Source: Telmatocola sphagniphila (GTDB lineage Bacteria; Planctomycetota; Planctomycetia; Gemmatales; Gemmataceae). From it: DNA of 32,000 bases. Positions 1,321 to 25,667 of the stretch are shown here, one piece after another (the stretch's first letter is position 1; each line of letters begins with the position of its first letter). Made by a program: the position numbers and the translations under genes. The notes below the pieces were generated by a model. It saw only the letters and a program-made list of their open reading frames with translations, made no database searches and was not told the origin of the DNA. The stretch covers positions 6,090,001 to 6,122,000 of the forward strand of contig NZ_CP074694.1 in NCBI RefSeq assembly GCF_018398935.1. The letters run 5' to 3'.

Positions 1321-1633
1321 CTTCCTAAGCCGCTTAAGATTCTTTCTTCTTCATCAAATTCTGACTTACTACTGCCTACGGACTGGGCAAGAGCTGCCCT
1401 GCAAAGCATCATTTGTGAGCGAGCCATGAGAGGCGCACCAGTCTCGTCCTCCTCCTTTAGAATATTCCCCACAATTAACAATCTCAGTCGATTTCCTGGT
1501 CTGAAGAGCGAAGTGAACGCCGCCGACTAGAGCCGGTTAGGGCCGTTACAATAGGAACGTACCAACCAGCAGGCCCGACAGAGTTTACCGGACCGCTAAA
1601 TACGACAGATTTCGTTGAGTTAGGTCATACAAT

Positions 1634-1663
1634 TTGTCATAATTGCCTTTTGCGGAATATTTT
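1634..1663 (+). promoter_or_regulatory. Candidate sigma70-type promoter for the ParA-WD40 gene
   Basis: TTGTCA (1634-1639), an 18-nt spacer, then TATTTT (1658-1663), about 50 nt upstream of the GTG start at 1712. Motif match by eye only. Confidence 0.25.
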
Positions 1664-1711
1664 TTTGAAACTGCACGAGATTCGGTGTTCCTCGGATAAA
1701 CAGAGTACGCT

Positions 1712-4700
1712 GTGCGGAAATTGTTGATTGCGAGCCAAAAGGGGGGTGTCGGCAAGACAACCGCGGCCATTAATTTGGGTGCCGCAACCGCCCTCTCTGG
1801 TGGGAAAGTACTGCTCGTCGATGCTGATCCATTGGCTTCGATTCAACATGCGCTAGCGCTGAGTCCGCATGATAGGGCCGAACGTTTGCATTCCATCGGA
1901 GCCGAAAGCGAGGCCCCGATCTGGCGGAACATCGTTCCCGGTCTGGATGTCAGCACTCCTTATGGAGATCCAAATTCTCCTTACCATACTCTCTTCGAAT
2001 ATCTCAAGCTTTTGCGAACTCCCCCCTTTCAGGGGTACGATTGGATTCTCATCGATATCACCCCCACAATTGGCTCGGTTCAACTCCGCCAATTGATCGA
2101 AAATGTCGATGATCTGATGCTGGTGATTCGCGCGGAACCGATGGCGTTCCGGGCCGTTCCCACCTTTTTGACCATCGTTCGGGCGGTGCAGGATACCGGC
2201 GTGGACGTGAATGTCTGCGGCATTGTACTCACTTTGCCGCCGGGTGAACCGCTGGGCGGCTCCTGGGAAACGGAACTTCGTCGCTGCTTCAACCGCTCTC
2301 TCCTGCCCCATGCCATTCCGTTCGATCCCGAAGTGGGCCGAGCCAGTGTGCTGGGCAAGCCAGTGCTGGTGGTGAATCCGCAAACTCCTGCCTCGACGCA
2401 ATATGCGGCTCTGGCACAGACCCTCGGTTTGATCGCTTCCGAACAGGATGTGGTCGATCTTTTCTCCCATATACCTGTAACCGGGATCGGTTTGAGTCAG
2501 GTTTCCAGGATCAAACCGGTCATTGCCGCCCCCAGCCAGATCACGAGTGCGGAAGTGCGGGCTTTGCTGGGAGCGCCCGTCGATCAGATTTATCAATCTC
2601 TATCTGGTACAATGGATCGCCCGGCCGGCAAGATGCCCGTGTACGATGACCACCTCCCGAAGGGCTCTTCTCTCGAAGGCCTGCAGGACACTGCCCGCTT
2701 ACCGAAAATTGAAATGCATATTCCCGCCGGAGCGACTTCTGAGACCGTGCAGAGGAAGGATATTACTGTGAAGAATTCTGATACCAACGGGGTGACCGAG
2801 AAAAATCCCGGTAGTCGGGGGCATATCGGCGATGTGACGTTCATTGCCTTTTCTCCCGATGGTCGATCGCTGGCAACCGCCAGCTGGGATAAGACTGTCA
2901 AACTTTGGGATGTCGCCAGCGGCGCAGAACTCCAGACACTGCGCGGCCACACCGGCGTGGTGAGTTCTGTCGCATTCTCGCACAGTGGGGAATTGATCGC
3001 TTCCGCCAGTTGGGATAAGACCGTCCGGCTCTGGAACATCAAAACCGGCCAGCAGGTTTCACTGTGCAAAGGGCACTCCGGCGTCGTTACCTCAGTCGTG
3101 TTTGCCAGCCAGGATGAAATGATCGCCAGCGGCGGCTGGGACAAGAGCGTTCGGCTCTGGCAATTGAACGGTCAAGCCGTAGCCGTGCTGCAGGGACACC
3201 AGCGGATGGTGACTTGCGTCGCCGTCAGTTCCGATAACCAGCTGACGGCCTCCGGCAGCTGGGACAAAACTTTGCGACTGTGGCCGCGCGTCGGCGGTAC
3301 ACCGGTTGTCTTGAAAGGACATACCGGTGACGTGACCTGTGTGGCCTTCTCGCCCGATGCTCAATGGATCGCCTCGGGAAGTCTCGATCATACAGTTCGC
3401 CTCTGGGATCTCGATCGCAATAAAGAGCTGTATGTGCTACGCGGCCATACCGGGGAAGTGACCGCAATTTCCTTCTCGCCGGATGGAAAATACCTCGCCT
3501 CGACCAGTTGGGATCGCACGATTCGCATCTGGGATGTGGCCAGCGGATCACTGCGCTACACGATGCAGGGTCACGAAGGCGTCATCACCGGGGTGGCATT
3601 TGCTCCGGACGGAAATCGACTCGCCTCGTGCAGCCTGGACCGCACGGCACGAATCTGGGATGTCACGCAAGGCAAGATGCTCTCCTCTCTAGCCATACAA
3701 ACCAGCAATGAAGCCAAGTCGACCCAAGCCACGAATGTGCCTCGGGAAACACCGGCCCCCATACCTTCGATTCTTACGGACACCAAAGGCGTAATCGATC
3801 TTCCTCCCATCGAGCAGCCGCCGCTGCCAGCTAAGCCGACTGCCCCGACGCCTCCACCCAGTAAAATTTCGAAGTTGACGCCCCCGGGCCTTCCGAGGCC
3901 GAATGGTCGTCCTGCACCGGTGCCCCTGTCGGAACAGCCCAAGCCGGATGAAATTGTAGAGACCTGGGCCGCCCCTCCGTCGACTCCTCTCCTGTCCGAT
4001 ATCATGGGGCCGAGCGTGCTGAAATCTTCGATTCAGCCTCCGAAGATCGAAATTCCCAAGCCGCCGCCGCTACCCGATTTCTTCCCCGAGAAGAAACCAG
4101 TACTGCAGCAACCGGCCACGGTGGTCGAGCCGAGAACGAGTTCGTTACCCGCTCTGCCGCCTTTGCCCACACCAATTAAAACCGTTCGGCCGACTGCGAA
4201 AGCGGTGGCTTATAACGCGGTGGCCATCACTCTCGACGATCACACGGCCTTGGCCGCCCGTGACGATGGCAGGATCGATATTTGGAATCCGACTACCGGG
4301 GCTCGTCTGGGGAGTCTGGTCGGCCATGTCGGTTCGGTGCACGCCATCACCTGTCTGATTGATCTAAAGCACGCGGTCAGCGCGGGCGAAGATGGCACGG
4401 TTCGAATCTGGAATCTCCGATCTTTTAAAGAAGACGCCTTGCTGCAAGCGCATACTGCCGCTGTGCTGGCGTTGGCAGTGTCGCCGACGGAGAATCGCCT
4501 GGCCTCGGCCAGTAGTGACAAAACGGTGGTGATTTGGGATTTGACCACCCGGGAAAATCTGCTGAAAATCGACAATCCGCAGAGTGCGGTGACGGCACTG
4601 GCCTATTCGCCGGATGGTCGACAACTGGCTTTCGCCGGTTTGGATGGCGTGTTGACTCTGGCCGACAGCGCAAGCGGTAAAATTCTCCGGCAATGGAACG

Positions 4701-6634
4701 CCCATGATCGGGAAATTCATGCCTTGGCCTTTTCCATCGATGGACAATCGCTCGCCAGTGGGGCAGAAGATGGCATTGTCAAAATCTGGGATGCGGTCAC
4801 CGGGGAGGAATGGTTCGCCTTAACCGGCCACGATCGACCGATTTCCGCGATCCAATTTTCCAGCGAAGGGTCGATGATCGCTACGGGTGGCTGGGATGGC
4901 CGGATTATTCTCTGGAATTCCCTCATCGGCCATCAGATTCGGGTGCTCGGCCGACATCGCGCCGAAGTGACCGGTTTGACTTTTCACAACGGCGGCAAGC
5001 AACTTCTCAGTTCCAGCTGGGATCGAACGATTCGTAACTGGGATCCGCTCAACGGCGGCCAGATTCTGGAAATTTCCGATGAAAAAATATCGACATTCAA
5101 GCTCGATTTGCCACCCGTGCCCGAATTCAAGCTACCGCCTTTGCCGAAAACAATCGAACAGGAGACGCCCGATTTCAATTCGACCGACAAAGACAATCAG
5201 CCGACGGACGTCCTACCAATCGCTGGCGTCTTAGCGCCCTCGCCTGAGGAACCCTTGGAAGCCACCGAACCGATGGAAGCTCCGGTTGCAGAAATTGTGC
5301 CGGAAGCCATAGCGGAACACGTACCCGCCCCCGTTGCCAAGGAGGTGACCTCGACGGCCGTTGCGGAACTGATTGGTGAATCGGCCCCTCTGGCCGATCG
5401 CGTCAACGATAGCGATCCCTCGATGGCCATCCCGGCCTTGCCGCTCCCGGAGGCTCGATTGATCGCCGATGAGTTCTCCGCTTCCAAAGTCCATTCGATC
5501 AAGCGAATTCGTCCCCTGGAAATTCCCAAGGCTCCGGCCACTCAGGAAGCCATTGAATTGATGAAGGAAATTCCAGCGCAAAGGTCCGCCGATGCCGAGG
5601 AAATTCCGCTGTCCCAATTGCCGGACGATTCGATACTGAAGATGGGCGAACCGGTCGATGAAGAGGGAGTCGAACTGCACGCGCTGCCGCCCGCCGCACC
5701 GTCGAAAACCTTGGTGAAGGTCGAAAAACAATTGCTGGCGAGCGCCGGAGCCGATAATGCGACCACTCTCTGGGATTTGGCCGATGGCTCGACGCACGCC
5801 ACTTTGAATGGCCATACTCGAGACGTGATGGCGGTCGCCTTTTCCTCCGATGCCCGCTGGTTGCTGACCGGTTCCGCGGATGAATCGATGCGGCTGTGGG
5901 ATGTGGCCACCAGTTCTCTGCGCTACACTTTCGAAGGGCATTTCGGCGAAATCAATGCGGTGGCTTTCAGCCGCGATGGCCGAACGCTGGCCTCTGGCAG
6001 TTGGGACATGAGCATCCGGCTCTGGGATCTTCCTACCGGCTCCTGCATAGGAAGTCTTCTCAATCACCGGGGGGCGATCTCCTGTGTGATCTTCAGCCCG
6101 GATGGTAAGTGCCTGGCTTCCGGCAGTTGGGACAAAACCGTCAAGATTTGGGATTTGCTGGCCGGTCGGGAATTGTACACTCTGCGCGGGCACGAAAAAG
6201 TCGTCACTTGCGTCTCCTTCAGTCGGGATGGCCGTTTCCTCGCGACCGGCAGTTGGGATAACACGGTGCGAATCTGGGATCTGGAAGGGGGCGGAGCCGA
6301 GTTCGCGTGTCTGAAAGGTCACACTTCAACCGTCAGTGGAGTGGTGTTTCTGCCGGACGGTCGCCGGGCGGTATCTTCCAGTTGGGACAAGAATGTTATC
6401 CTCTGGAATATCGAGGATGGTACGATTATTAAGACCATGACCGGGCACGAAGATTCGATCCGTTCGCTTTCAATGTCGAGCGATGGAACGACCCTGGCCA
6501 CCGCGGCTTGGGACGGCTCCATTGGGCTTTGGGATCTTTCTCGCGGGGAAGAACGGCTATTCCTCACGGCCCCAGGTCGCAAGGTGCATGCGGTTGCTTT
6601 CGCACCGTGTGTGATCGAGACGATACAGAGTTGA
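1712..6634 (+). CDS. ParA/MinD-family P-loop ATPase fused to three 7-bladed WD40 beta-propellers (1,640 aa)
   Basis: GTG start. An in-frame TAA at 1697-1699 excludes a longer N-terminus. The N-terminal ~245 aa carry the deviant Walker A SQKGGVGKTT, then VLLVDADP and WILIDITP (ParA/Soj/MinD signature). There are 21 WD40 units (GH...[LI]W[DN]) in three blocks of seven, separated by Pro-rich/acidic linkers. The ORF is a continuous 4,923 nt. Confidence 0.9.
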   Translation: MRKLLIASQKGGVGKTTAAINLGAATALSGGKVLLVDADPLASIQHALALSPHDRAERLHSIGAESEAPIWRNIVPGLDVSTPYGDPNSPYHTLFEYLKLLRTPPFQGYDWILIDITPTIGSVQLRQLIENVDDLMLVIRAEPMAFRAVPTFLTIVRAVQDTGVDVNVCGIVLTLPPGEPLGGSWETELRRCFNRSLLPHAIPFDPEVGRASVLGKPVLVVNPQTPASTQYAALAQTLGLIASEQDVVDLFSHIPVTGIGLSQVSRIKPVIAAPSQITSAEVRALLGAPVDQIYQSLSGTMDRPAGKMPVYDDHLPKGSSLEGLQDTARLPKIEMHIPAGATSETVQRKDITVKNSDTNGVTEKNPGSRGHIGDVTFIAFSPDGRSLATASWDKTVKLWDVASGAELQTLRGHTGVVSSVAFSHSGELIASASWDKTVRLWNIKTGQQVSLCKGHSGVVTSVVFASQDEMIASGGWDKSVRLWQLNGQAVAVLQGHQRMVTCVAVSSDNQLTASGSWDKTLRLWPRVGGTPVVLKGHTGDVTCVAFSPDAQWIASGSLDHTVRLWDLDRNKELYVLRGHTGEVTAISFSPDGKYLASTSWDRTIRIWDVASGSLRYTMQGHEGVITGVAFAPDGNRLASCSLDRTARIWDVTQGKMLSSLAIQTSNEAKSTQATNVPRETPAPIPSILTDTKGVIDLPPIEQPPLPAKPTAPTPPPSKISKLTPPGLPRPNGRPAPVPLSEQPKPDEIVETWAAPPSTPLLSDIMGPSVLKSSIQPPKIEIPKPPPLPDFFPEKKPVLQQPATVVEPRTSSLPALPPLPTPIKTVRPTAKAVAYNAVAITLDDHTALAARDDGRIDIWNPTTGARLGSLVGHVGSVHAITCLIDLKHAVSAGEDGTVRIWNLRSFKEDALLQAHTAAVLALAVSPTENRLASASSDKTVVIWDLTTRENLLKIDNPQSAVTALAYSPDGRQLAFAGLDGVLTLADSASGKILRQWNAHDREIHALAFSIDGQSLASGAEDGIVKIWDAVTGEEWFALTGHDRPISAIQFSSEGSMIATGGWDGRIILWNSLIGHQIRVLGRHRAEVTGLTFHNGGKQLLSSSWDRTIRNWDPLNGGQILEISDEKISTFKLDLPPVPEFKLPPLPKTIEQETPDFNSTDKDNQPTDVLPIAGVLAPSPEEPLEATEPMEAPVAEIVPEAIAEHVPAPVAKEVTSTAVAELIGESAPLADRVNDSDPSMAIPALPLPEARLIADEFSASKVHSIKRIRPLEIPKAPATQEAIELMKEIPAQRSADAEEIPLSQLPDDSILKMGEPVDEEGVELHALPPAAPSKTLVKVEKQLLASAGADNATTLWDLADGSTHATLNGHTRDVMAVAFSSDARWLLTGSADESMRLWDVATSSLRYTFEGHFGEINAVAFSRDGRTLASGSWDMSIRLWDLPTGSCIGSLLNHRGAISCVIFSPDGKCLASGSWDKTVKIWDLLAGRELYTLRGHEKVVTCVSFSRDGRFLATGSWDNTVRIWDLEGGGAEFACLKGHTSTVSGVVFLPDGRRAVSSSWDKNVILWNIEDGTIIKTMTGHEDSIRSLSMSSDGTTLATAAWDGSIGLWDLSRGEERLFLTAPGRKVHAVAFAPCVIETIQS
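2819..3664 (+). repeat. WD40 propeller 1 (7 blades, intragenic protein repeats)
   Basis: Seven consecutive units: GHIGDV..LWDV, GHTGVV..LWNI, GHSGVV..LWQL, GHQRMV..LWP, GHTGDV..LWDL, GHTGEV..IWDV, GHEGVI..IWDV. Confidence 0.85.
4202..5047 (+). repeat. WD40 propeller 2 (7 more divergent blades)
   Basis: Unit endings are IWNP, IWNL, IWDL, (LADS), IWDA, LWNS and NWDP. Unit openers include GHVGSV, AHTAAV, AHDREI, GHDRPI and RHRAEV. Confidence 0.75.
5732..6631 (+). repeat. WD40 propeller 3 (7 blades plus closing strand)
   Basis: Units: ..TTLWDL, GHTRDV..LWDV, GHFGEI..LWDL, NHRGAI..IWDL, GHEKVV..IWDL, GHTSTV..LWNI, GHEDSI..LWDL. A terminal KVHAVAFAP strand follows. Confidence 0.85.
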
Positions 6635-7126: not shown

Positions 7127-7795
7127 TCAATCATTTACAAAAATGAGAGCGAACCCGTCATACCCTTTTTCGCCTACGGTTTGCATCGCGGTGGCGCTCA
7201 CCCGTTTTTCCTGTCGGATCAATTCATTCAATGCACGCACCCCTTGCACGCTGGGATCGGAGCTGACCGGATCGATCACTTCGCCGGCCCGGACCACATT
7301 ATCGACAATAATGAGAGTGCCGGGGTGAGAAAGCTTCAGAGCCCACTTAAAGTAAGCGGGGTTGCTCGGTTTATCGGCATCGATGAAAATCAGATCGAAC
7401 GGAGTCGGATCTTCCTCATAGATTTCGGCCAGCGATGTTTCCGCTATCCCCTCACGCAGCTCGATGCGATCCGAGAACCCGACGAGTTGAAAATTCTCGC
7501 GAGCCACGGCGGCGTGGTGCGGATCCGCTTCGAGAGTAATCAGTTTTCCGTATTCGGGAAGTGCGCGGGCCATCCAGACGGCGCTGTAGCCACCCAGGGT
7601 GCCGATTTCCAGAACCCGGCGGGCATTAAGCATGCGTAGGAACAGATTCAGCATCTTACCTTGGTTCGGTGTGACGCTGATGGGAGGGAGGCCGGCGTTG
7701 GCGCTGCGGGCCAGCACCTCTTCCATCTGGGAATCTTTACCAAGGAGTGTGTCGCATAAGTAGCGATCGACGGACGTCCAGACTTCCGAGGTCAT
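7127..7795 (-). CDS. Class I SAM-dependent O-methyltransferase (family 3, caffeoyl-CoA OMT / YrrM-like)
   Basis: 222 aa. Motif I is RVLEIGTLGGYSAVWMA, followed by LITLEADP and FDLIFIDADK, as is typical of family-3 OMTs. AGGAG lies 9 nt upstream of the ATG at 7795. Confidence 0.8.
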   Translation of the reverse strand: MTSEVWTSVDRYLCDTLLGKDSQMEEVLARSANAGLPPISVTPNQGKMLNLFLRMLNARRVLEIGTLGGYSAVWMARALPEYGKLITLEADPHHAAVARENFQLVGFSDRIELREGIAETSLAEIYEEDPTPFDLIFIDADKPSNPAYFKWALKLSHPGTLIIVDNVVRAGEVIDPVSSDPSVQGVRALNELIRQEKRVSATAMQTVGEKGYDGFALIFVND

Positions 7796-7821
7796 TTGCG
7801 GTACTCCTGCCTGAAGATTAT

Positions 7822-9177
7822 TTACTTACCCAGAGATTTCGCCGCATCCCGGCATAACTGCTCGGCCTGTTCCGCCGTCGGGGCTTCCGCGATTGCTCGA
7901 ACGACCGGTTCGGTATTACTCGGTCGAACGTGCAACCAGCGGTCTGGCCAGTCGAGCCGGAGGCCGTCCAGTTTGTCGACCCGAGCTTCGGGCCAGCGGG
8001 ATTCTAGGGCAGTCAGAGCGGCTTGCAATTTTTCGGGAACCACGGCGTATTTGGTTTTTAACATCGCGTATTTGGGCAGCGAATCGACGGCCTGGCTAAG
8101 GGTTTGCCCCGTTTTCGCCAGGTACTCGAGAATGAAAGCCATGCCGACATAAGGATCCCGAACCCAGCCGACGCGCGGATCGATGACGCCGCCGTTACCT
8201 TCGCCGCCGATGACCGCCTGATGCTTGCGAATGCCGTTGACGACATTCGCTTCCCCGACGGCCGAGCGATAGCAGATCTGTCCAAATTGCTTGGCCAGGT
8301 CTTCATTCATTTTCGAAGTGGACATATTGATCACCACCGGACCCGCTTTTTGCATCAGCCGGTGCCGGACTGCCAGTGCCAAGGTGGCTTCTTCGGAAAC
8401 GCATTGACCCCGTTCGTCGATCAGCGCCAGGCGGTCGGCATCCGGATCGAGGACGAAGCCGAGAGCGGCTTTACTACTCGGAACTTGAGGTCCGATCTCC
8501 CCCAGATGCGCTGGGATAGGTTCCGGCTCGTGGGCAAAATGTCCGTTCGGTTCGCAACCGATTTCGATGATTTCACATCGCAGTTGCTGAAGTAAAAGTC
8601 GAGCGAGTTCGCCTCCCGCCCCGCCGTTGGCGTCGACCAGCACTCGAAAGTGAGCCGAGTGGATCAAATCCAGGTCCACGAGTTTCAGAACGGTTTGAGC
8701 ATGGAGAGCCAGCGGCTCCCGGCTGCTCTCATAGGAGCCGATTTTGTCCCAGCTGGCATATCGCGCGTTACCCGTCTCAAAAAGCTGGCGAACTTCGCGG
8801 CCTTGTTCCGGAGAGAGCACGGCCCCATCGGCATCGAACATTTTCAGGCCGTTCCAGGGAGAGGGATTATGACTGGCGGTGATTTGAATGGCGCCCATGG
8901 CGTTAAAGTGCCGCACGGCCAGCCCGCAAGTCGGGGTGCTGGCGATACCGATATCAATTACCCGGCAGCCGGTGGAACGCAAACCGGCCACCACGGCCTG
9001 CAGCAGCATGTCCCCGCTGGGCCGACTATCCCGCGAGACCAGAATCAAGCCGCCCTGCAGGTAAGTTCCGAGCGCCACGGCAAACCGGCACGCTTCTGAC
9101 GGAAATAGGTTCTGGCCGATTAGTCCGCGAATGCCGGAAACGCTGACTATCAGACCTGCTGGGAAATTATTACTCAT
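7822..9177 (-). CDS. Alpha-D-phosphohexomutase (phosphoglucosamine mutase / phosphomannomutase family)
   Basis: Catalytic-Ser loop ITASHNPSPWNGLK, metal loop FVLDPDADRL and sugar loop GGEGNGG. The ORF track starts at a TTG (9180), and the adjacent ATG at 9177 is the likelier start. Substrate (GlcN-6-P versus Man/Glc-6-P) cannot be decided by eye. Confidence 0.85.
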   Translation of the reverse strand: MSNNFPAGLIVSVSGIRGLIGQNLFPSEACRFAVALGTYLQGGLILVSRDSRPSGDMLLQAVVAGLRSTGCRVIDIGIASTPTCGLAVRHFNAMGAIQITASHNPSPWNGLKMFDADGAVLSPEQGREVRQLFETGNARYASWDKIGSYESSREPLALHAQTVLKLVDLDLIHSAHFRVLVDANGGAGGELARLLLQQLRCEIIEIGCEPNGHFAHEPEPIPAHLGEIGPQVPSSKAALGFVLDPDADRLALIDERGQCVSEEATLALAVRHRLMQKAGPVVINMSTSKMNEDLAKQFGQICYRSAVGEANVVNGIRKHQAVIGGEGNGGVIDPRVGWVRDPYVGMAFILEYLAKTGQTLSQAVDSLPKYAMLKTKYAVVPEKLQAALTALESRWPEARVDKLDGLRLDWPDRWLHVRPSNTEPVVRAIAEAPTAEQAEQLCRDAAKSLGK

Positions 9178-9284
9178 CAAGAAGTTATAGGAGTTCCGAG
9201 ATTGAAACGAGTACGGGCAAATTCGAAAGCAGATTGACCGACCATTCGCTTGAGCAAGTGAGAATCTGTTGTAATCTTTAGATC

Positions 9285-10916
9285 ATGGCCAAGAAACACA
9301 AGACGAAGCCCGCACCGACGCCGGTGGCGACTTCCACACCAGTACACCTGCCGGCTGTAGCCAGTTCCACCCGCCCGTCTTACTGGTTCTCCTGGATCCA
9401 GGTGTTTGCCATCGACGCTCGCTCGCTGGGTCTATTCCGCATCATCTTGGGGCTACTTCTACTGGCCGATCTGGTGTTGCGCGCTGTCGATCTTGAGGCT
9501 TTCTATTCCGATGAAGGGGTTATGCCCCGGCTGACGCGAATTGCCAATTACGAGTTGAACGATACGACCGGATTGAAATATCTGCTCTCGCTTCACATGG
9601 TGTCCGGGCAGAACTGGTGGCAGATTCTGTTGTTCAGCATCTTCGGACTTTTCAGTTTTTCGTTGATGATCGGTTATCGAACCCGGCTGTCCGCCCTCGT
9701 CAGTTACGTAATGCTCTGTTCACTGCAATCGCGCAACCCCATTATCCTCGATGGCGGCGATGTCTACATTCGCGTTATGTTGTTCTGGGGGCTGTTCCTG
9801 CCGATGAACATGCGCTTCAGCGTGGATCGATGGCTTCGTCCCGAACCGGAACCCCCTCTTGGTGTCCTGAATCTCGCGACCTTCGCCATGCTGACGCAAG
9901 TGGGATATGTCTATGCCATGGGCGCGGTGTTGAAGAACGATGCGGTCTGGACGCGCGACTACACGGCCATGTACTACGCCATGTCGCTCGAATGTTTCTC
10001 CACCTGGCTGGGAAAATGGCTGGTTCATCAACTGGTGCTGACCAAATTTCTCACGTTCGTCACGTGGTGGCTCGAACTCGTGGGGCCGATCCTGCTCTTA
10101 TTGCCCTTCTGGAATCGCTATCTGCGGATCGCCGTGATCCTCGGTTTCTGGGGCTTCCACATGAGCACGGAGGAGACGCTGCACCTGAGTATTTTCCCTT
10201 TCATTGGCTGCATGGCCTGGATTCCCTTCATTCCGGCCTGCGTCTGGGATGCGAAAAGCTGGCCGGGGAAGTATCTGGTGCCGTTTTTCGGGGCGTTGGT
10301 CCAACCTATACAAGTGCAGATTGAGGCGATAATTCGCGCGTTCCGGCCCTATTTTCGGAAGCCCGAAGCGCCGTATTTCGAAATGGGAAGAGTTGCGAAG
10401 ATCTTTGTGGGGATCACGTGGATTTACGTTCTTTTGTGGAATCTTCGGGAGATCCCCAAAATCGGCCAGTCGGTGATGCCGCTTTCGTGGAATGTCGTCG
10501 GCCGCTTACTGCACGTCGATCAGAATTGGGACATGTTTGCACCGAAGCCTACTACCGACGATGGCTGGTATGTGATGAAGGCAATTCTTCTGGATGGTAC
10601 GGAAGTCAATCTCTGGGATCTCGACCAGCCCGTCACGCTGCAAAAGCCGGAATCGGTTCAGGCCACTTACATTAACCGGCGCTGGCGAAAGTATCTGTTG
10701 AATATTTACCAGGGAAGATTCGACCAGTTTCGCCAGCCGTTTGCCTTATGGCTGGCGGTTCGCTGGGAGAATGCGCATCCCGATCGGGGACCGGAGAAGC
10801 GCATCAAGACGATTCAAATCGATTTCATGCTCGATGAGGTGTTGCCGCCCGGTGTCTCTCGACCGGCACCGCGGCTGGTGAATCAGATTACGATGGAAAA
10901 CAAGCAACTCAAATGA
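9285..10916 (+). CDS. HTTM-domain (vitamin-K-dependent gamma-carboxylase-like) polytopic membrane protein
   Basis: 543 aa. The N-terminal motif IDARSLGLFRIILGLLLLADL is followed by multiple TM segments and ...SRNPIILDGGDVYIRVMLFWGLFLPMNMRFSVD. This parallels the HTTM/VKGC pattern (D..SLA.FR...G ... N..Y.. ... SVD). A C-terminal ~200-aa soluble-looking domain follows. Confidence 0.7.
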   Translation: MAKKHKTKPAPTPVATSTPVHLPAVASSTRPSYWFSWIQVFAIDARSLGLFRIILGLLLLADLVLRAVDLEAFYSDEGVMPRLTRIANYELNDTTGLKYLLSLHMVSGQNWWQILLFSIFGLFSFSLMIGYRTRLSALVSYVMLCSLQSRNPIILDGGDVYIRVMLFWGLFLPMNMRFSVDRWLRPEPEPPLGVLNLATFAMLTQVGYVYAMGAVLKNDAVWTRDYTAMYYAMSLECFSTWLGKWLVHQLVLTKFLTFVTWWLELVGPILLLLPFWNRYLRIAVILGFWGFHMSTEETLHLSIFPFIGCMAWIPFIPACVWDAKSWPGKYLVPFFGALVQPIQVQIEAIIRAFRPYFRKPEAPYFEMGRVAKIFVGITWIYVLLWNLREIPKIGQSVMPLSWNVVGRLLHVDQNWDMFAPKPTTDDGWYVMKAILLDGTEVNLWDLDQPVTLQKPESVQATYINRRWRKYLLNIYQGRFDQFRQPFALWLAVRWENAHPDRGPEKRIKTIQIDFMLDEVLPPGVSRPAPRLVNQITMENKQLK

Positions 10917-11598
10917 GTTTGCGATCCTGAAGAAAATTCAGGATCGCCGCTACGCTTTCTTCGATCGTCAGTTTGGAATTGTCGATTGTCAGTTCCGGCT
11001 TGAGCGGAGCTTCATAGGGATCGTCGACCCCGGTGAAACCCATTCCCTTTCCAGCCGCCACAGCTTCACGAGCCTGCTTGTAGAGTCCTTTCGGATCGCG
11101 CTGTTCGCACGTGCCGATGGGGGTATCGACGAAGATTTCGATGAAGGGAATCGCCCCGGACTTGTTCTGCTCGTGAATGGCTCGCGCGGCGTCCCGATCC
11201 TTGCGATAGGGACTGATGAAACTGGTCAGACAGATCAGACCCGAATCGGCGAAAAGCTTGGAAACCTCACCGATTCGTCGGATGTTCTCTTCGCGATCCT
11301 CGGCGGAAAATGCCAGACCGAAGCGCTTGGCGGAAGTTTCAGAATACTTGCGGGTATCCATCAGGATTTTCGGACCGGCGTTCAGCCCGAAGCGGATGTT
11401 ATCGCCATCCAGAACGTAGGCCGGATGGCCGCGCTGAATCAGAACTTGTTCCAGGGCGACGGCAATCGTACTTTTGCCGGAACCCGAAAGGCCGGTGAAC
11501 CAAAGCGTGGCCCCGGTCTGCTTGAGAAGCTTGGCTCGTTCTTCGCGAGTGACGGTACCCGAATGCCAGGTGATCTGCGTAGACTTAATGTCGCTCAT
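10909..11598 (-). CDS. cysC: Adenylyl-sulfate (APS) kinase
   Basis: MSDIKSTQITWHSGTVTREERAKLLKQTGATLWFTGLSGSGKSTIAVALEQVL...YVLDGDNIRFGLN aligns end to end with the canonical CysC pattern. I place the start at ATG 11598. The track's longer TTG start (11640) would sit inside the upstream terminator. Confidence 0.9.
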   Translation of the reverse strand: MSDIKSTQITWHSGTVTREERAKLLKQTGATLWFTGLSGSGKSTIAVALEQVLIQRGHPAYVLDGDNIRFGLNAGPKILMDTRKYSETSAKRFGLAFSAEDREENIRRIGEVSKLFADSGLICLTSFISPYRKDRDAARAIHEQNKSGAIPFIEIFVDTPIGTCEQRDPKGLYKQAREAVAAGKGMGFTGVDDPYEAPLKPELTIDNSKLTIEESVAAILNFLQDRKLI

Positions 11599-11632
11599 AT
11601 CCTGCCGTGTTCCTATTCGATTTATCCCAGGC

Positions 11633-11671
11633 GGAAACAAAAATAGGCACTGTCCTCAAAGGAAGAGTGCC
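11633..11671 (-). terminator. Rho-independent terminator after the 654/665-aa exported protein gene
   Basis: On the - strand, GGCACU..UCC-UUUGA-GGA..AGUGCC (complement of 11646-11671) is followed by UAUUUUUGUUU (complement of 11633-11645). It sits 9 nt after the TAG at 11680-11682. Confidence 0.6.
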
Positions 11672-11679
11672 AATTTAGC

Positions 11680-13641
11680 CTATTTGGTAGGAAGCAGCAG
11701 AGAAGGTGCATCGCCAAGTTTCACTTCGATCCGGCAATCGGGGAGTTCTCCCGCTACGGGTGGCTGGCTGCCGCCGGTGGGCCGGATTCGAATACCAAAC
11801 GTTCCTTCGCCGGGCAGAGTGATGCGCAATCCCTGGCCCAGACCGGCCTCATTTCGCAACGGTTTCCAGGTAGTCCCTTCGTCCGAAGTGATCCAGAAGT
11901 CGGCTCGCGAGTCGCCGCGCACATCCGAGGTATAGTCCAGCGTGCAATTCCTCGAAGTCACTTTCAAAAGGGGAATGGTCTGCTTGAGCTGCATTTTTTC
12001 GGGAATGCGCCCCATCTTGGGGGATGCGGAAGCGGAGGTCTGATCTACAGGTAGCATTCGAGCTTCGCGCGAATTATCGCCGGGCTTGGGAAGTTCGAAA
12101 TCCTTTTCTGGCAGTTTCGGGAGTTCCTGGGTCATACTGGGTATGGCCACTGGAAGCGCGCTCGGAATCGATTTGGGTATTTCCGGGAGTTTAAGATCGA
12201 CCTCGCCGACTTTTCCAGGTTGGGTCGGGGAAGACGATGTTTTAGCGTCCGAGGGGGAGTCTGGCAGCACCGGCGGTCCTGCGATCGCATCCCCCTTCAG
12301 GTCCGGGAGATTCTGAGGAATCTCGATACCCAACTTCGGCTGAGGTTTCGTTAATGCAGGTGTAACGGGCTTCTCGTGCACATCGAGTGCGGGCAGTTTC
12401 GGCAGATCTTCCACCGTGGACTTGATTTCCAGTTTGGCGGTTTGAACCGGAGGAAGCTTGGGAAGGTCATTGTCTGCCGTCACGGCCGTCTTCGGCAAAG
12501 CCGGGGTCTCGATTTTCACATCCGGTGTCGACGGCATACTCGGTAGTTTTGGAAGATCATTACCTTCCAAAACGGGCGACTTTGGAAGAGGGGACGCATC
12601 CAGCTTCACAGCTGGCGTCGAGTTCATCGCTGGCAGCTTGGGAAGATCGTTTTCTCCCGACGCGGTCATCTTGGGTAACAACGCCGGCTCGATCTGGATC
12701 TGGTCTGGTTTGGGTAGCGGTATGTCAGAAAGTGTGGATGCCGCGGCTTTGGGTTTCGTCTCGCCGCTGGACATCTGATTGGAAAGCTCGGCGGTCAAAG
12801 GCATTTCGGGCATAATAGCCGGTTGCGGCATCAACTTGGGCCAGGCCGGTTGCTGCACCTCATTCACTTCGAAACTGACCGTTTTGATTTCGCTGTTACG
12901 GACCGTCAGCGTAGGTTCCGACGGGCGCGGCAGAGTCAATGATTGCGTGTCGAAAGCCGTTCGAGTGATCGATTTGGAGGTGCTTGTCTCCGCTGAAATT
13001 TTATCGCCGACGCGAATCTCTTTTTCGGTCTCGTTCCCCGCTCGATCCCGCACTTTCATGCGAATTGCACCCGCCAGGATACCAGGATGAGGAACGGTAA
13101 AAAGTTGAGGCGAGTCGGCAGTGGCATTTTCGAGATTTTTCCAGGATCCGTCTGCAGCCTTATAGCTGAGTTTCAAGCTGGCATAGTCCGGGTTGGCATC
13201 GACGATGCTTGCCTGCAGACAAATATCGCCATTGGCCGCGTGAATCGGTGTGAGCCGAACCTCCGGCGGCACCGTATCGACAACTACCAACCGTTGAGGG
13301 ACTGCCCGCGCTAACGAGCTCGGATAGTTTTTGCCGTTGCGATCCACGAGAACGAACAGAAAGGCGTACGATCCGTCTTGCGGAGCGCGATATTCGAAGG
13401 CTTTCTGATCGGCCGAGGCCGTACCGACGCACTGCCAGTCGTCATTTTGGAACTTCGCATAGAGTTTCACTTCCGCGATATTCCTGCGGACCGCCTCCTC
13501 CATGACAATGGGTAGGCGCAGATTCGGATTCTTGACGTAGATAGGCGCCATCTGGGCATAGGCGGGAGAAACGGCAAAACCGCTCCCCACCAGAAGAGCG
13601 GCGGCAGCTCGCGGCCAGAGCGAGCGGAATAGTGGTTGCAT
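11680..13641 (-). CDS. Exported protein: two N-terminal Ig-like/beta-sandwich-type domains, Pro/Lys-rich [DE]LPKLP repeat region, C-terminal beta-rich domain; function unknown
   Basis: Signal peptide MQPLFRSLWPRAAAALLVGSGFAVSPAYA|Q. ATG 13641 is preferred (AGAGGG 8 nt upstream), though the ORF could extend to 13677. DxAGN-type endings (KVRDRAGNETEKEIRV) suggest bacterial Ig-like folds. The central low-complexity part is roughly 300 aa. I recognise no enzymatic motif. Confidence 0.8.
   Translation of the reverse strand: MQPLFRSLWPRAAAALLVGSGFAVSPAYAQMAPIYVKNPNLRLPIVMEEAVRRNIAEVKLYAKFQNDDWQCVGTASADQKAFEYRAPQDGSYAFLFVLVDRNGKNYPSSLARAVPQRLVVVDTVPPEVRLTPIHAANGDICLQASIVDANPDYASLKLSYKAADGSWKNLENATADSPQLFTVPHPGILAGAIRMKVRDRAGNETEKEIRVGDKISAETSTSKSITRTAFDTQSLTLPRPSEPTLTVRNSEIKTVSFEVNEVQQPAWPKLMPQPAIMPEMPLTAELSNQMSSGETKPKAAASTLSDIPLPKPDQIQIEPALLPKMTASGENDLPKLPAMNSTPAVKLDASPLPKSPVLEGNDLPKLPSMPSTPDVKIETPALPKTAVTADNDLPKLPPVQTAKLEIKSTVEDLPKLPALDVHEKPVTPALTKPQPKLGIEIPQNLPDLKGDAIAGPPVLPDSPSDAKTSSSPTQPGKVGEVDLKLPEIPKSIPSALPVAIPSMTQELPKLPEKDFELPKPGDNSREARMLPVDQTSASASPKMGRIPEKMQLKQTIPLLKVTSRNCTLDYTSDVRGDSRADFWITSDEGTTWKPLRNEAGLGQGLRITLPGEGTFGIRIRPTGGSQPPVAGELPDCRIEVKLGDAPSLLLPTK
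12331..12654 (-). repeat. Degenerate tandem ~30-aa (about 90-100 nt) repeats, consensus NDLPKLP-x-M-x-STP-x-VK...LPK
   Basis: Four successive copies start at ENDLPKLPA, GNDLPKLPS, DNDLPKLPP and VEDLPKLPA. At the DNA level the copies are visible as cttgggaagatcgtt, ttttggaagatcatt, cttgggaaggtcatt and tttcggcagatcttc on the + strand. Confidence 0.7.
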
Positions 13642-13708
13642 AATTGGGACCCTCTTTCGCGGCAATCCTTGCGGCAACTAGGGGTTTCATCAGCCCCGAA
13701 TCGTTCGG

Positions 13709-15259
13709 TTAATATTTTCCAGCAACGCGGAACTCCAGCGGTCGCCTTAACGTTCGTCCCGTCGGAATATCGGTTACATAAATCCAGAGGGTGTAGACAC
13801 CAGGGTGGATATTCCGGGGGACAATCACCCGATTCACAAAATACATATCTCGCGGCAGACTGCGGTATTCGCGAATAAACTCGGTGAATACCTCGCCCGG
13901 GGAATCGGCATCCGTGCTGACAACTTTGTCGGCGGCATCGCGCAGTTCCCAGTGGCTGCTGAGTCGAACGTAATAGCCATTTTCCGGAGCCTCATAACTC
14001 CGGTTACCAGTCAGTTTGCGTATTTCCGTCGAGAAGTTTCGGATCTCGATGTACACATCCACATAAGTGTTGGGTTGGAAGGCCGGTCGAAGATCCTTGA
14101 TGTAGTTGCCGTATCGGCTCGCTTTCTCCACGTAGCAGATGCGGCCGGCCGTAAAAGCGGCTTTGGAACGCACCTGATCCGCGGCGATCTCCAATCGATC
14201 CAGGACTATGTTGGCTTCCTCGGCAGAGAGATTTCTCATTCCCACTTCACTGATGCGAAGAATGGGATGCATGAGATTCGAGAGCATCTCCTGCGTGCCC
14301 GAATCGTAATTCTTCAGAGCTTCAAACACCTCGGTGTTTCGGTTCTGCTGCATGCATCGAAGCGCCACAATCAAAGGGGAATCCATCGGCGATTGCGGCG
14401 CTTCGGGCACCGGAACGACAACCATCGGCGGCTTCTCCGAACGGACCTTTTCGAGATCGACTTTCGGAGGGGATACCGGCAGCTCCTCTTTCGGGGCGGG
14501 AATCGGTCGAACCGGTGGTTCGACCTGAGATACAGAGTGCGGAGGATCGACCTTCTTCTCCGGTGTCGGATTCTCCTCCTTCGGCAGTATCGGTTTCGTT
14601 TTGCCCAGGGGGAACGGATCACCCAGTTCGGCCGGGCTCCTCGTTTGATGATCCTTGATTTCCGGAGTCGGTTCCGTGGGCGTTACATCTCCGATCGGGA
14701 TGACCTTGTTAGTCGGTTTCTCTTCAATCTTCGGACTGGGGTTGCCAAGCTTGGAATTCAACACATCCCAGTCGGGAGCCACAACATTGGGTAGCGCCGG
14801 GAGCGATTCGTTCGGCAGAGTCGCCGGTAGTTCCTCGTTCGGTGCCGGAACTGGGAGCGGCTTCGGTGTATTCTCGACTACGGGCAGTTTCGGCAGCATC
14901 GGCGGTTGCTGATATTGCGTCTGCTCCACGGCGGCATCTGTTTTCGGTGCCGGGGCAGTCCTATCCGTTTCGGGCAGACTCGGCACTGCAGTTTGCTGAG
15001 TGATGCCCGGCATTCCCACAAACGGACCCGAAGCCGGAGTGGGCGTTGAACCATTGGGAATCGAACTGGTTTGCAGGGCCGTTGCCGGAGTCGTGGCGGC
15101 CGGCGTACTCACTTGAGCGGGCGTGGGGAGCTGAGTCGGTCGGATGCGATCCATCCCTCGCCCCGTTAAGTGAGGAGGGAGGTCGTTATCGACTGAAAGG
15201 CAGGCTGGCAGTGATAAAGCTGCGAGACTGATTCCGAAATACGCTATCCGCCGCGCCAT
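13709..15259 (-). CDS. Putative lipoprotein / exported protein with long Pro-rich spacer and C-terminal beta-sandwich-like domain; function unknown
   Basis: 516 aa. The N-terminus MARRIAYFGISLAALSLPAC has a lipobox-like LPAC. About 280 aa of P/T/E/K-rich sequence include MLPKLPVV and SLPALPNV. The ordered C-terminal ~220 aa end in GVYTLWIYVTDIPTGRTLRRPLEFRV. GAAGAGG lies 7 nt upstream of the ATG. Confidence 0.8.
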   Translation of the reverse strand: MARRIAYFGISLAALSLPACLSVDNDLPPHLTGRGMDRIRPTQLPTPAQVSTPAATTPATALQTSSIPNGSTPTPASGPFVGMPGITQQTAVPSLPETDRTAPAPKTDAAVEQTQYQQPPMLPKLPVVENTPKPLPVPAPNEELPATLPNESLPALPNVVAPDWDVLNSKLGNPSPKIEEKPTNKVIPIGDVTPTEPTPEIKDHQTRSPAELGDPFPLGKTKPILPKEENPTPEKKVDPPHSVSQVEPPVRPIPAPKEELPVSPPKVDLEKVRSEKPPMVVVPVPEAPQSPMDSPLIVALRCMQQNRNTEVFEALKNYDSGTQEMLSNLMHPILRISEVGMRNLSAEEANIVLDRLEIAADQVRSKAAFTAGRICYVEKASRYGNYIKDLRPAFQPNTYVDVYIEIRNFSTEIRKLTGNRSYEAPENGYYVRLSSHWELRDAADKVVSTDADSPGEVFTEFIREYRSLPRDMYFVNRVIVPRNIHPGVYTLWIYVTDIPTGRTLRRPLEFRVAGKY

Positions 15260-15304
15260 CCGTGACCTCTTCGTCAGGGTACGCCTGGTCCTATAAGAAG
15301 GTGG

Positions 15305-15332
15305 ACAATAGCAGAGGAGAGAGAGGTGTCAA
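15305..15332 (-). promoter_or_regulatory. Candidate sigma70-type promoter for the exported-protein gene pair
   Basis: On the - strand: TTGACA (complement of 15327-15332), a 16-nt spacer, then TATTGT (complement of 15305-15310), about 45 nt upstream of the ATG at 15259. It lies inside the 259-nt gap after the phosphatase gene. Confidence 0.4.
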
Positions 15333-15518
15333 GTTCGGTCGAAGCGAAGGAAATCTTCACTGGGAAATGGCAAAAACTGTCTGCAAGCAGCTCGGGAATC
15401 GAGCCGCAACTTACATAGCTTCCCCAGTTTGTCGGGGAGACTTCAAATCGGCGGTTGGGCGCGCTTTGGAGAGATATTCAGAAACCGGAATTTCAACCGA
15501 TTCGGGCAAGCTGGAGAA

Positions 15519-16301
15519 TCAGGAGAAGAGTTTGTCGAACCACGTCCGCGTCTGGGCCGGAATGATCGGCAGAGGCCGCCAGGGAAGATTGTTGATGATA
15601 ATGTTGCCGTGCAGACTGCAGACTCTATCCGCCACCCCCTGATTGGTCCAATGGGAGATACGATCGTAAGCCGAGCGAATCTTGGGAGGTCGTCGAACGG
15701 TGGAGTGTCCATCCGAAGCGACCAGATGAACGAGATTTCTTTGAAACCAGCTCTTGAGAATTTTCTCTTCCCGGCGTGCTTGCGGCATGGTGATACTGCC
15801 GGCATTCACCTGGATTATGCAGCCCATGTGAACCAGTTCTTCAACGAAGCCTTCATGGTAGAAGACATCCGGATAGCGTTCGGCATGGGCGATGATGGGA
15901 ACGATGTTCCGCTGTAAGAGCGTATCGGCAATCGGCCGGATGTCGAGCGAGATGTTCGCGGGGAGTTCCACCAGAAGAAATCGCCCGTGATCCCCAACCG
16001 TCAGATACTTTCCTTCGGTGAGCGATTCTTCGAAGTCGAGTTGAATCATGACTTCCGAGGAGGGGACGACATTCAGTGGAATCTGATTGACGGCGAGCTG
16101 CAGCTTCAATTCCGATACTGCCTGGCGAATCCGCTCGGGAGTATTATCGGGCCAACCCTCATTTTGATGTGCCAGGGCCGCGGCTGTTCCGGTTCCATCC
16201 GCCACCGCCAGTGCGCACATTTCCAAAGCGTCTTCGAGAGTTCGGGGGCCATCATCCAGACCCCAGAGCAGGTGAACGTGTAAATCGACGAAAGAGAGCA
16301 T
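15519..16301 (-). CDS. PHP-family protein-tyrosine phosphatase (CpsB/YwqE type)
   Basis: 260 aa. The N-terminal metal-binding motif is VDLHVHLLWGLDDGP. Later IIAHAERY and LVASDGHS match the CpsB/Cap8C pattern. Confidence 0.8.
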   Translation of the reverse strand: MLSFVDLHVHLLWGLDDGPRTLEDALEMCALAVADGTGTAAALAHQNEGWPDNTPERIRQAVSELKLQLAVNQIPLNVVPSSEVMIQLDFEESLTEGKYLTVGDHGRFLLVELPANISLDIRPIADTLLQRNIVPIIAHAERYPDVFYHEGFVEELVHMGCIIQVNAGSITMPQARREEKILKSWFQRNLVHLVASDGHSTVRRPPKIRSAYDRISHWTNQGVADRVCSLHGNIIINNLPWRPLPIIPAQTRTWFDKLFS

Positions 16302-16386
16302 TGGTAAACTTTCACCCGAGGGCGGAAAAGAGCCTCATCCTTAAGAAGTGAACCCGGGCGAGGTTCACGGGCATAGCCATCGCCTA

Positions 16387-18747: not shown

Positions 18748-18790
18748 GGGTAAATCCTCAAAAAGTTGGGCTGGATTCGAGACACCAGAA

Positions 18791-23154: not shown

Positions 23155-23160
23155 GGCGTG

Positions 23161-25659: not shown

Positions 25660-25667
25660 GAGACTGC

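Follow-up and report, generated by a model that had tools for sequence, protein, structure and literature searches.

We analysed a stretch of 32,000 nucleotides (the window) from the genome of Telmatocola sphagniphila (assembly GCF_018398935.1, contig NZ_CP074694.1, positions 6,090,001 to 6,122,000 of the forward strand), focusing on the gene at window positions 1712 to 6634, whose product joins a ParA-type ATPase domain to three WD40 propellers. An earlier note, made from the letters of the window, had called this ParA-WD40 protein a lone ('orphan') fusion, and had read it as either a self-contained positioning or scaffolding machine or a signalling NTPase. We found that the protein is real and intact at 1640 residues, and neither an artefact nor a one-off. 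It is no singleton either, since it belongs to a conserved Planctomycetota family that is already deposited under generic names. Our preferred explanation, to which we give a probability of about 0.5, is that the protein would act as an ATP-gated dimerising scaffold or tether with a built-in cargo or address module. This combined statement draws on sequence comparisons and structure models.

The gene and its folded modules

The coding sequence opens with a GTG, and the note's exclusion of a longer N-terminus holds: an in-frame stop lies just upstream, and in the alignment homologues likewise begin at MRKLL... A database protein is identical over the full length (100%; QVL31935.1 / WP_213496410.1 / UniProt A0A8E6B4C2); NCBI labels WP_213496410.1 an 'AAA family ATPase' of Telmatocola sphagniphila (Gemmataceae, Planctomycetota), from a complete genome with a 6,592,641-bp contig. 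Tandem Repeats Finder detected no DNA-level tandem repeats in the gene, which rules out a recent amplification or a repeat-collapse artefact. The highest Kyte-Doolittle mean over 19 residues is 1.42, and the protein thus has no transmembrane (TM)-like segment; nor does it have a signal peptide, as the first ParA strand already begins at residue 2. Hydropathy and a Pfam scan of the gene and its neighbours agree with the note, which had seen no signal peptide, TM segment, ParB-like partner or DNA-binding domain; in particular, no ParB, MinC/E or DNA-binding Pfam domain occurs in the gene or its neighbours. The features of the gene, with positions in amino acids (aa) and with the evidence from open reading frames (ORFs), alignments and AlphaFold2 (AF2) models and their predicted local distance difference test scores (pLDDT), are as follows.

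1697..1699, + strand: in-frame TAA, 12 nt upstream of the GTG, bars a longer N-terminus
1712..6634, + strand: coding sequence, 1640 aa, GTG start, TGA stop at 6632-6634 (ORF analysis)
1712..2461, + strand: ParA/Soj-like deviant-Walker-A ATPase domain, aa 1-250 (Pfam, profile match, AF2)
1733..1762, + strand: deviant Walker A SQKGGVGKTT, aa 8-17, with signature Lys10 and P-loop Lys15 (sequence, family alignment)
1808..1831, + strand: Walker A'/switch I VLLVDADP, aa 33-40, with D37, D39 and P40 invariant (family alignment)
2042..2065, + strand: Walker B WILIDITP, aa 111-118, with D115 invariant (family alignment)
2228..2344, + strand: subfamily-specific region LTLPPGEPLGGSWETELRR ... IPFDPEVGRA, with E179 (or G178) and E207 at the Soj arginine positions
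2447..2464, + strand: DVVDLF motif, aa 246-251, directly past the ATPase core (alignment)
2462..2818, + strand: spacer, 119 aa, mostly disordered (pLDDT <50 at aa 252-275 and 306-365)
2546..2608, + strand: predicted helical hairpin SAEVRALLGAPVDQIYQSLSG in the spacer, aa 279-299 (AF2, alignment)
2819..3664, + strand: propeller A, 7 blades, aa 370-651 (WD40 units, AF2, Foldseek)
3665..4201, + strand: linker L1, 179 aa, 25% Pro, basic, isoelectric point (pI) 9.6 (no Pfam match; outside both structure models)
4202..5047, + strand: propeller B, 7 blades, aa 831-1112, the most divergent, top-face positions hypervariable (WD40 units, AF2)
5048..5731, + strand: linker L2, 228 aa, 14% Pro, 19% Asp+Glu, pI 4.35, disordered (composition, AF2 pLDDT <50)
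5732..6631, + strand: propeller C, 7 blades plus closing strand, aa 1341-1640 (WD40 units, AF2)

The sequence profile identifies the N-terminal domain as an ATPase of the ParA/Soj/MinD superfamily, nearest to chromosomal Soj and with all catalytic motifs in place. The deviant Walker A with both lysines, the VLLVDADP and the WILIDITP that the note had pointed out were all found, and the family shows little or no variation at their key residues; SQKGGVGKTT as a whole is near-invariant across the alignment. The ParA/MinD placement is confirmed by profile searches, in which AAA_31 (8.8e-19, 68.6 bits, cut-off 27) and CbiA (1.5e-15, 57.7 bits, cut-off 25.4) exceed their gathering scores over aa 1-218 and Soj/ParA structures rank first over the full length. 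The best PDB match of the family profile is Thermus Soj (1wcv, 6e-38, full length, aa 1-241), followed by a ParA (3e-26), Helicobacter pylori Soj (5e-23), FleN (5e-18) and MinD (~1e-15). Single-chain AF2 models were made of aa 1-660 and aa 820-1640, and they predict an alpha/beta ATPase domain with pLDDT mostly >90. A Foldseek search of the aa 1-660 model against the PDB returned WD40 structures alone and no structural match for the ATPase domain; the ATPase is therefore classified by sequence-profile searches.

None of the curated NCBIfam families reaches its cut-off for the protein, for its TM-anchored paralogues or for the small KGGxGR proteins described below. The ParA_partition model NF041546 gives 66 bits against a cut-off of 180, with the match limited to aa 6-64. 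The minD_bact model gives 35 bits (cut-off 212.9), archaeal MinD 61 (cut-off 202) and the BcsQ model TIGR03371 54 bits (cut-off 157.85).

By sequence inspection, 21 GH...WD units fall into a 7+7+7 arrangement (Pfam PF00400, 5e-203), and the three blocks of seven lie exactly where the note had placed them (2819-3664, 4202-5047 and 5732-6631). Structure prediction agrees, with three closed propellers of 28-29 strands each at pLDDT 90-99, and Foldseek aligns propeller A to solved seven-bladed WD40 structures with a template-modelling score of up to 0.98. The protein is thus predicted to consist of four folded modules, all cytoplasmic; the propellers are placed in the cytoplasm because the protein has no TM segment. 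The WD40 repeats are 40-53% identical to those of WD40 proteins with STAND NTPase, kinase or extracytoplasmic function (ECF) sigma domains. This fits the note's remark that large bacterial WD40 arrays are usually attached to STAND NTPases or kinases, as does the list of WD40 matches (nSTAND1, NACHT, NB-ARC).

We compared the top-face contact positions of each blade (R1-2, R1 and D-1, the hot spots defined in PMC3419727) over ten full-length orthologues. Such positions are normally hypervariable in bacterial WD40 arrays. In propeller A, 18 of the 21 hot-spot columns are invariant, compared to 56 of 259 other columns (Fisher p=5e-9), and together they spell the contact signature DTW VSW VTW MTW DTL ETW VTL. 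Eight orthologues keep all 21 positions while the remainder of propeller A is 48-58% identical; three further orthologues keep 19-20 of 21 and distant members 15-16 of 21, compared to at most 10 of 21 in the unrelated WD40 proteins compared. Propeller B has no invariant contact column (0/21), and its hot spots are less conserved than its scaffold. Propeller C is intermediate, and an ETW/ATW/MTW/ASW/SRW-like signature recurs in many members. We infer that propeller A has one specific ligand, the same throughout the family, because its predicted contact face is frozen while the rest of the domain drifts.

The modules are joined by segments of the kind that the note had described, a spacer of about 120 aa (119 aa) and two long Pro-rich or acidic linkers, of which L1 (179 aa) is basic and L2 (228 aa) acidic. 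Linkers of orthologues are mostly 12-26% Pro and about 70-600 aa long, with composition kept and sequence and length not. At a threshold of >=45%, the linkers contain no sequence-conserved islands, and only the post-core motif and a clade-specific hairpin are kept. The motif, [DE]x[VI][DE][LI]F, occurs in 10/10 aligned WD40-type orthologues, is sometimes repeated, and is missing from three aligned TM-type paralogues (P0010, P0014 and P0017). The hairpin (helices 279-286 and 289-301, pLDDT about 70-75) is conserved only in the subclade of the window protein. In composition and conservation, the linkers appear to behave as typical entropic tethers.

Relatives and the range of C-terminal modules

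We collected relatives by scanning a single genome for each species and then applying tblastn and ORF tracing. The module order of ParA, propeller A, a middle propeller (in many loci) and a C-like last propeller recurs in many metagenome-assembled genomes (MAGs) labelled Planctomycetota or Gemmatales. Continuous fused ORFs of 2088 aa (L008, Zavarzinella), 1682 aa (L012), 1515 aa (L009) and 895 aa (L024, Fimbriiglobus) were traced, together with two of at least 1475 aa (L023) and at least 1367 aa (L016). In eight further database proteins (P0125, P0133, P0134, P0136, P0141, P0145, P0155 and P0216), Pfam recognises both a ParA and a WD40 domain. The database names of relatives are generic, such as 'AAA family ATPase' or 'WD40 repeat protein/BcsQ'.

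These relatives bear on the explanation that the fusion is a misassembly, a frameshift-made joining of adjoining genes, or a decaying product of domain shuffling with no specific function. Such an explanation could appeal to the extensive shuffling of WD40 modules in this lineage, and to six relatives (L001, L002, L003, L007, L010 and L013) in which the ATPase and the propellers lie in different frames. However, these six are long-read-type metagenome assemblies, and some of them break unrelated housekeeping genes too (SRP54 lies in two parts in L001, and L002 has a PALP-domain gene in fragments). We read the frame changes as indel errors. The window itself comes from a finished 6.59-Mb genome in which NCBI annotates the same 1640-aa product, the fused ORFs are continuous in six independent assemblies, the gene has no DNA repeats, and extreme purifying selection acts on propeller A's contact face. 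The chimera that the note had asked to exclude is not borne out, and the artefact explanation is already essentially refuted, with very little probability left to it. One consequence of the frame changes is that the fused architecture is under-counted in protein databases, because broken orthologues are listed as short 'ParA' fragments.

An exhaustive HMMER search of 1.84 billion representatives, clustered at 50% identity, showed that the ATPase subfamily is small and sharply bounded, with 115 clusters at E<=1e-30 and 19,899 at E<=1e-3. A hydrophobic C-terminus (TM-type) is found in 74 of the 115 clusters, WD40 repeats in 11, and the remaining 30 are short or fragmentary. In the TM-type architecture, the ParA core is followed by a Pro-rich linker of ~100-200 aa and then by one or two C-terminal TM helices. 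TM-type relatives are typical of Gemmataceae and were seen at L004, L006, L015, L017-L021 and L025; Telmatocola itself has a TM-anchored paralogue of 361 aa (P0068). The window protein has the marks of this subfamily: the motifs RAEPMA[FY]R and LTLPxGE..GG.WE.ELR, the Pro-rich tether and, of the two possible C-terminal modules (TM or WD40), the WD40 one. In a rough neighbour-joining tree, indicative only, it falls in a main WD40 clade beside the TM clade, and a second small WD40 group branches deeper.

The note had proposed checking how often ParA and WD40 domains occur together and how widely. By these searches, 11 of the 115 subfamily clusters carry WD40 repeats, and the subfamily has so far been found only in Planctomycetota, mostly Gemmatales. 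Its ATPase core always precedes a Pro-rich tether, and then either one or two TM helices (the majority) or WD40 propellers. Consequently, the propellers are one of two alternative C-terminal 'address' modules, because most subfamily members carry a membrane anchor instead.

Proposed mechanism and competing explanations

As in other ParA/MinD ATPases, the core of the ParA-WD40 protein would form an ATP-sandwich dimer; the general ATP cycle is described, with a sandwich dimer in all solved members (PMC11407121). Given that the residues and the helix required are missing, dimerisation would not place the protein on the nucleoid or the membrane. It would join two three-propeller arms, carried on long flexible Pro-rich tethers, and so raise the number of docking sites from three to six. 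The cargo or address adaptor would be built in, with no separate partner of the ParB, MinE or McdB type. Propeller A would hold one conserved ligand common to the whole family, and propeller B lineage-specific ligands or none. ATP hydrolysis would reset the monomer, the stimulus possibly being a further partner or an internal motif.

The missing determinants were located by alignment. The position of Soj R189 is occupied by E179 (or G178) and that of R218 by E207 (both in the profile alignment with Thermus Soj and when B. subtilis Soj is aligned pairwise, the B. subtilis sequence and R218 numbering being as we take them to be). DNA binding by Soj reportedly depends on conserved arginines, a finding that others attribute to Hester & Lutkenhaus in 2007. 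Mutation of R189 in B. subtilis or of R195 in C. crescentus weakens or eliminates DNA binding (PMC10711552). ParA dimers attach to nucleoid DNA through a positively charged C-terminal interface, and MinD binds the membrane via an amphipathic helix (PMC11407121). TM-type members of the family alignment likewise have no arginine at either position. No MinD-type amphipathic C-terminal helix follows the core of the ParA-WD40 protein, where the acidic DVVDLF motif and the disordered spacer are found. A classical gradient on nucleoid or membrane is therefore judged unlikely for this protein, because the matrix-binding determinants of ParA and MinD are missing.

The same evidence weighs on a more conventional explanation, in which the protein works like ParA/Soj or MinD as a matrix-based positioning ATPase, with gradients on the nucleoid or membrane, and the propellers simply stand in for an adaptor that is otherwise a separate protein. 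Its nearest solved relatives over the full length are chromosomal Soj/ParA proteins, all of its ATPase motifs are intact, and most subfamily members are membrane-anchored, which links the subfamily to a surface. However, both DNA-binding arginine positions of Soj are acidic or Gly, neither a MinD-like amphipathic helix nor a TM segment is present, the NCBIfam models for ParA_partition, MinD and BcsQ score far below their cut-offs, and parB or minCDE was not found nearby. Moreover, a covalent cargo adaptor is incompatible with the release-and-rebind cycle of gradient models. We consider this explanation unlikely. The note's 'self-contained positioning or scaffolding machine' accordingly survives in part: an ATPase joined to three propellers is what we found, whereas the positioning role is weakened by the absence of matrix determinants.

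A second alternative takes the protein for a signalling NTPase analogous to STAND proteins, in which the WD40 array senses a ligand, the NTPase switches and an output follows, possibly including a role in conflict or defence. The architecture resembles that of NTPase proteins with WD40 sensors (nSTAND1, NACHT and NB-ARC), which dominate the WD40 match list, and the contact residues of propeller B are hypervariable, as in sensor arrays. Yet no STAND, NACHT, NB-ARC or effector domain occurs anywhere in the protein, and the invariance of propeller A is contrary to what a diversifying sensor would show. PADLOC assigned the protein to no anti-phage defence system; it returned only a repeat-driven WD40 match (candidate HEAT-ARM_XIII) and a P-loop match of 16-19 bits. 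To our knowledge, ATPases of the ParA type form dimers and not oligomeric hubs of the STAND kind, which also counts against this alternative. With no effector domain, STAND domain or defence-system match, the 'signalling NTPase' of the note is not upheld, and we regard a STAND-like role as distinctly improbable.

Several observations weigh against the ATP-gated scaffold that we prefer. Some relatives have a degenerate Walker A (SPTVGVGKTT, SPRAGVGKTT or GRRSGVGRTT), which suggests that ATP turnover may be dispensable in part of the family. In Gemmataceae, WD40 arrays are found joined promiscuously to other domains, and a fusion alone says little on the process that it serves. The loss of the two Soj arginines is compatible with another DNA- or membrane-binding surface. 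Finally, the window copy has no conserved gene neighbourhood that would point to a cargo. Among the members with a degenerate Walker A (P0145, P0155 and P0004/P0005/P0008), the signature lysine or the P-loop lysine is lost; P0145 nevertheless keeps 21/21 of the propeller A signature and P0155 16/21.

Taken further, the ATP-gated scaffold would be one branch of a third operating mode of ParA/MinD ATPases, with no nucleoid or membrane matrix. In this mode, the ATPase would be held on a permanent Pro-rich leash to a membrane anchor (in most members) or to propellers, and the WD40 branch would be an ATP-gated multivalent scaffold in the cytoplasm whose frozen Trp/Thr face on propeller A reads one conserved ligand. 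We put this extension forward tentatively and think it unlikely as a whole. That ligand might be a motif within the protein or its own Pro-rich linkers, and a mesh or condensate could then form. Gemmatales have heavily invaginated membranes, and an ATP-gated scaffold could organise a cell structure specific to this order.

Spatial organisation in bacterial cells is mainly the work of ParA/MinD ATPases, and the described systems all combine the ATPase with a separate adaptor and a nucleoid or membrane matrix (PMC11407121). A conserved subfamily with a hard-wired adaptor, be it propellers or a membrane anchor, and lost matrix determinants would extend this scheme of ATPase, matrix and separate adaptor, and would be an example of specificity encoded in cis. 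Mutagenesis and pull-downs have an obvious handle in propeller A's contact face, and with a cultured type strain as source the family is experimentally approachable.

Gene neighbourhoods and comparison with known systems

In five related loci (L003, L009, L010, L011 and L024), the ParA-WD40 gene ends a conserved same-strand cluster (5541-9962 in L003; 6070-10630 in L009). The cluster contains a Ser/Thr kinase, a V4R protein, a phycobiliprotein-like globin (PF00502), a second V4R-like protein and a small ParA-like ATPase; an unassigned protein of ~300 aa is added in 4/5 loci, and a ferredoxin-dependent bilin reductase in L003 only. BBAG/V4R clusters have been described in non-photosynthetic bacteria, including Planctomycetes, with no mention of these ATPases (Rockwell et al. 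2023, PMC10151467). The cluster of these relatives matches that type, extended by two ParA-like ATPases. The small ATPase (215-227 aa) has its P-loop lysine replaced by arginine (SHKGGTGRTT) and stays below the cut-off of the NCBIfam KGGVGR-variant model; it could be a heterodimer partner. Group-1 loci have its gene immediately upstream of the ParA-WD40 gene, and Telmatocola has it upstream of the TM paralogue P0068; it was located as follows.

L009 9980-10630: small KGGxGR ATPase
L012 9276-9938: small KGGxGR ATPase
L003 9315-9962: small KGGxGR ATPase
L006 7278-7961: small KGGxGR ATPase

These clusters suggest a bilin-sensor or Ser/Thr-kinase pathway, in which the ParA-WD40 protein would assemble or localise a complex of BBAG globin and V4R proteins with the small KGGxGR ATPase as its partner. 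Such a role is compatible with the ATP-gated scaffold and does not exclude it. The recurrence of the same-strand cluster in five related loci, closed each time by the ParA-WD40 gene, and the published description of such clusters, also from Planctomycetes (PMC10151467), speak for it. But the neighbourhood is missing at the window gene and at its closest relatives (L001, L002, L007, L008 and L013), the small KGGxGR gene of Telmatocola adjoins the TM-anchored paralogue instead of the ParA-WD40 gene, and gene adjacency is no evidence of interaction. We therefore consider a bilin or kinase pathway unlikely as the role of the family. The BBAG/V4R link of some members could still give a first functional hook for those enigmatic clusters.

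In the window, the ParA-WD40 gene is a solitary transcription unit. The gene upstream is divergent, encodes a secreted alpha/beta-hydrolase-like protein, runs off the left end of the window and has no counterpart in the related loci. The next credible gene downstream is a convergent O-methyltransferase, part of an exopolysaccharide-type locus on the minus strand (7127-20344). No Rfam or tRNA matches occur in the window. The features around the gene are listed here.

882-1711: intergenic region upstream of the ParA-WD40 gene, unusually long (~830 bp), ORF-free, with a lower GC content (about 0.48)
1615..1663, + strand: overlapping sigma-70-like promoter matches (9/12 matches; consensus only, weak)
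7127-7795, - strand: O-methyltransferase
7822-9180, - strand: phosphogluco/mannomutase
9285-10916, 11680-13677 and 13709-15259, - strand: large ORFs with no Pfam matches, within the polysaccharide locus
10909-11640, - strand: APS kinase
15519-16301, - strand: CpsB/CapC phosphatase
16387-18747, - strand: Wzz + BY-kinase
18791-20344, - strand: GT4 glycosyltransferase

Further along, the minus strand at 22282-28964 encodes a transglutaminase-like protein, a circularly permuted ATP-grasp + Alpha-E protein and a transglutaminase + DUF2126 amidoligase-like protein, and a large sulfatase lies at 29213-31597. Of 15 window genes, none adjoins any relative, bar one weak transglutaminase match. A BcsQ-like role tied to the polysaccharide locus was rejected, with a sub-threshold score, neighbours that are not bcs genes and synteny that is not conserved. 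A divergent upstream gene of ~420-460 aa, conserved on the minus strand in close relatives of the window gene (L001 6710-9865, L002 7996-9429, L007 7195-8451 and L013 8358-9743), was rejected as a partner, its product having a signal peptide and an outer-membrane-barrel-like C-terminus (...DMIWRY). This gene belongs to no Pfam family, is missing from the window and lies further upstream in L009 and L011.

We found no description of a ParA-WD40 protein or of the planctomycetal subfamily in the literature, and the note, which had not recognised the architecture from any characterised protein, agrees with the searchable record. The features examined for partition ParA, for MinD, for BcsQ, for STAND-WD40 proteins and for known defence systems are lacking in the ParA-WD40 protein. 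Its best profile match, over the whole 240-residue core, is to chromosomal ParA/Soj (Thermus thermophilus Soj, PDB 1WCV/2BEJ; Helicobacter pylori Soj, 6IUB), with which it shares the deviant Walker A with its signature lysine, the switch I DxD and the Walker B. It differs from them by Glu or Gly at the arginine positions, by the absence of a parB or parS context and by a C-terminal extension of 1390 residues with three propellers.

MinD, FlhG (FleN) and BcsQ position protein complexes, not DNA. They belong to the same superfamily as the ParA-WD40 protein, with the same expected ATP-sandwich dimer switch, and its IPxDxxVxRAS..GxPV stretch resembles what we take to be the corresponding stretch of MinD. 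Unlike them, it has no amphipathic helix, scores far below the family cut-offs and has no minC/minE, flagellar or bcs neighbours. The TM-anchored paralogues (P0017 from a Gemmataceae MAG, 470 aa; P0068 from Telmatocola, 361 aa) share a 37-46% identical core, the subfamily motifs and the Pro-rich tether, but end in one or two TM helices where the ParA-WD40 protein ends in propellers.

The STAND-WD40, Ser/Thr-kinase-WD40 and ECF-sigma-WD40 proteins of Gemmataceae and cyanobacteria have the same overall plan, an N-terminal nucleotide or signalling domain followed by a multi-propeller array. In contrast, the N-terminus of the ParA-WD40 protein has a SIMIBI-class ParA fold, with no effector and no TM segment, and by domain content it has just the C-terminal WD40 array in common with the STAND proteins. 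WD40 arrays in Gemmataceae are commonly fused to kinases and ECF sigma factors, and a ParA-WD40 fusion fits this habit of the lineage, which somewhat lowers the surprise. The ParA-ParB, McdA-McdB and ParC/PpfA-TlpT systems resemble it in coupling a ParA-type ATPase to a cargo-recognition element. In all the two-component positioning systems described, a separate protein serves as adaptor and stimulates the ATPase as well (PMC11407121), whereas the presumed cargo modules of the ParA-WD40 protein are covalently attached.

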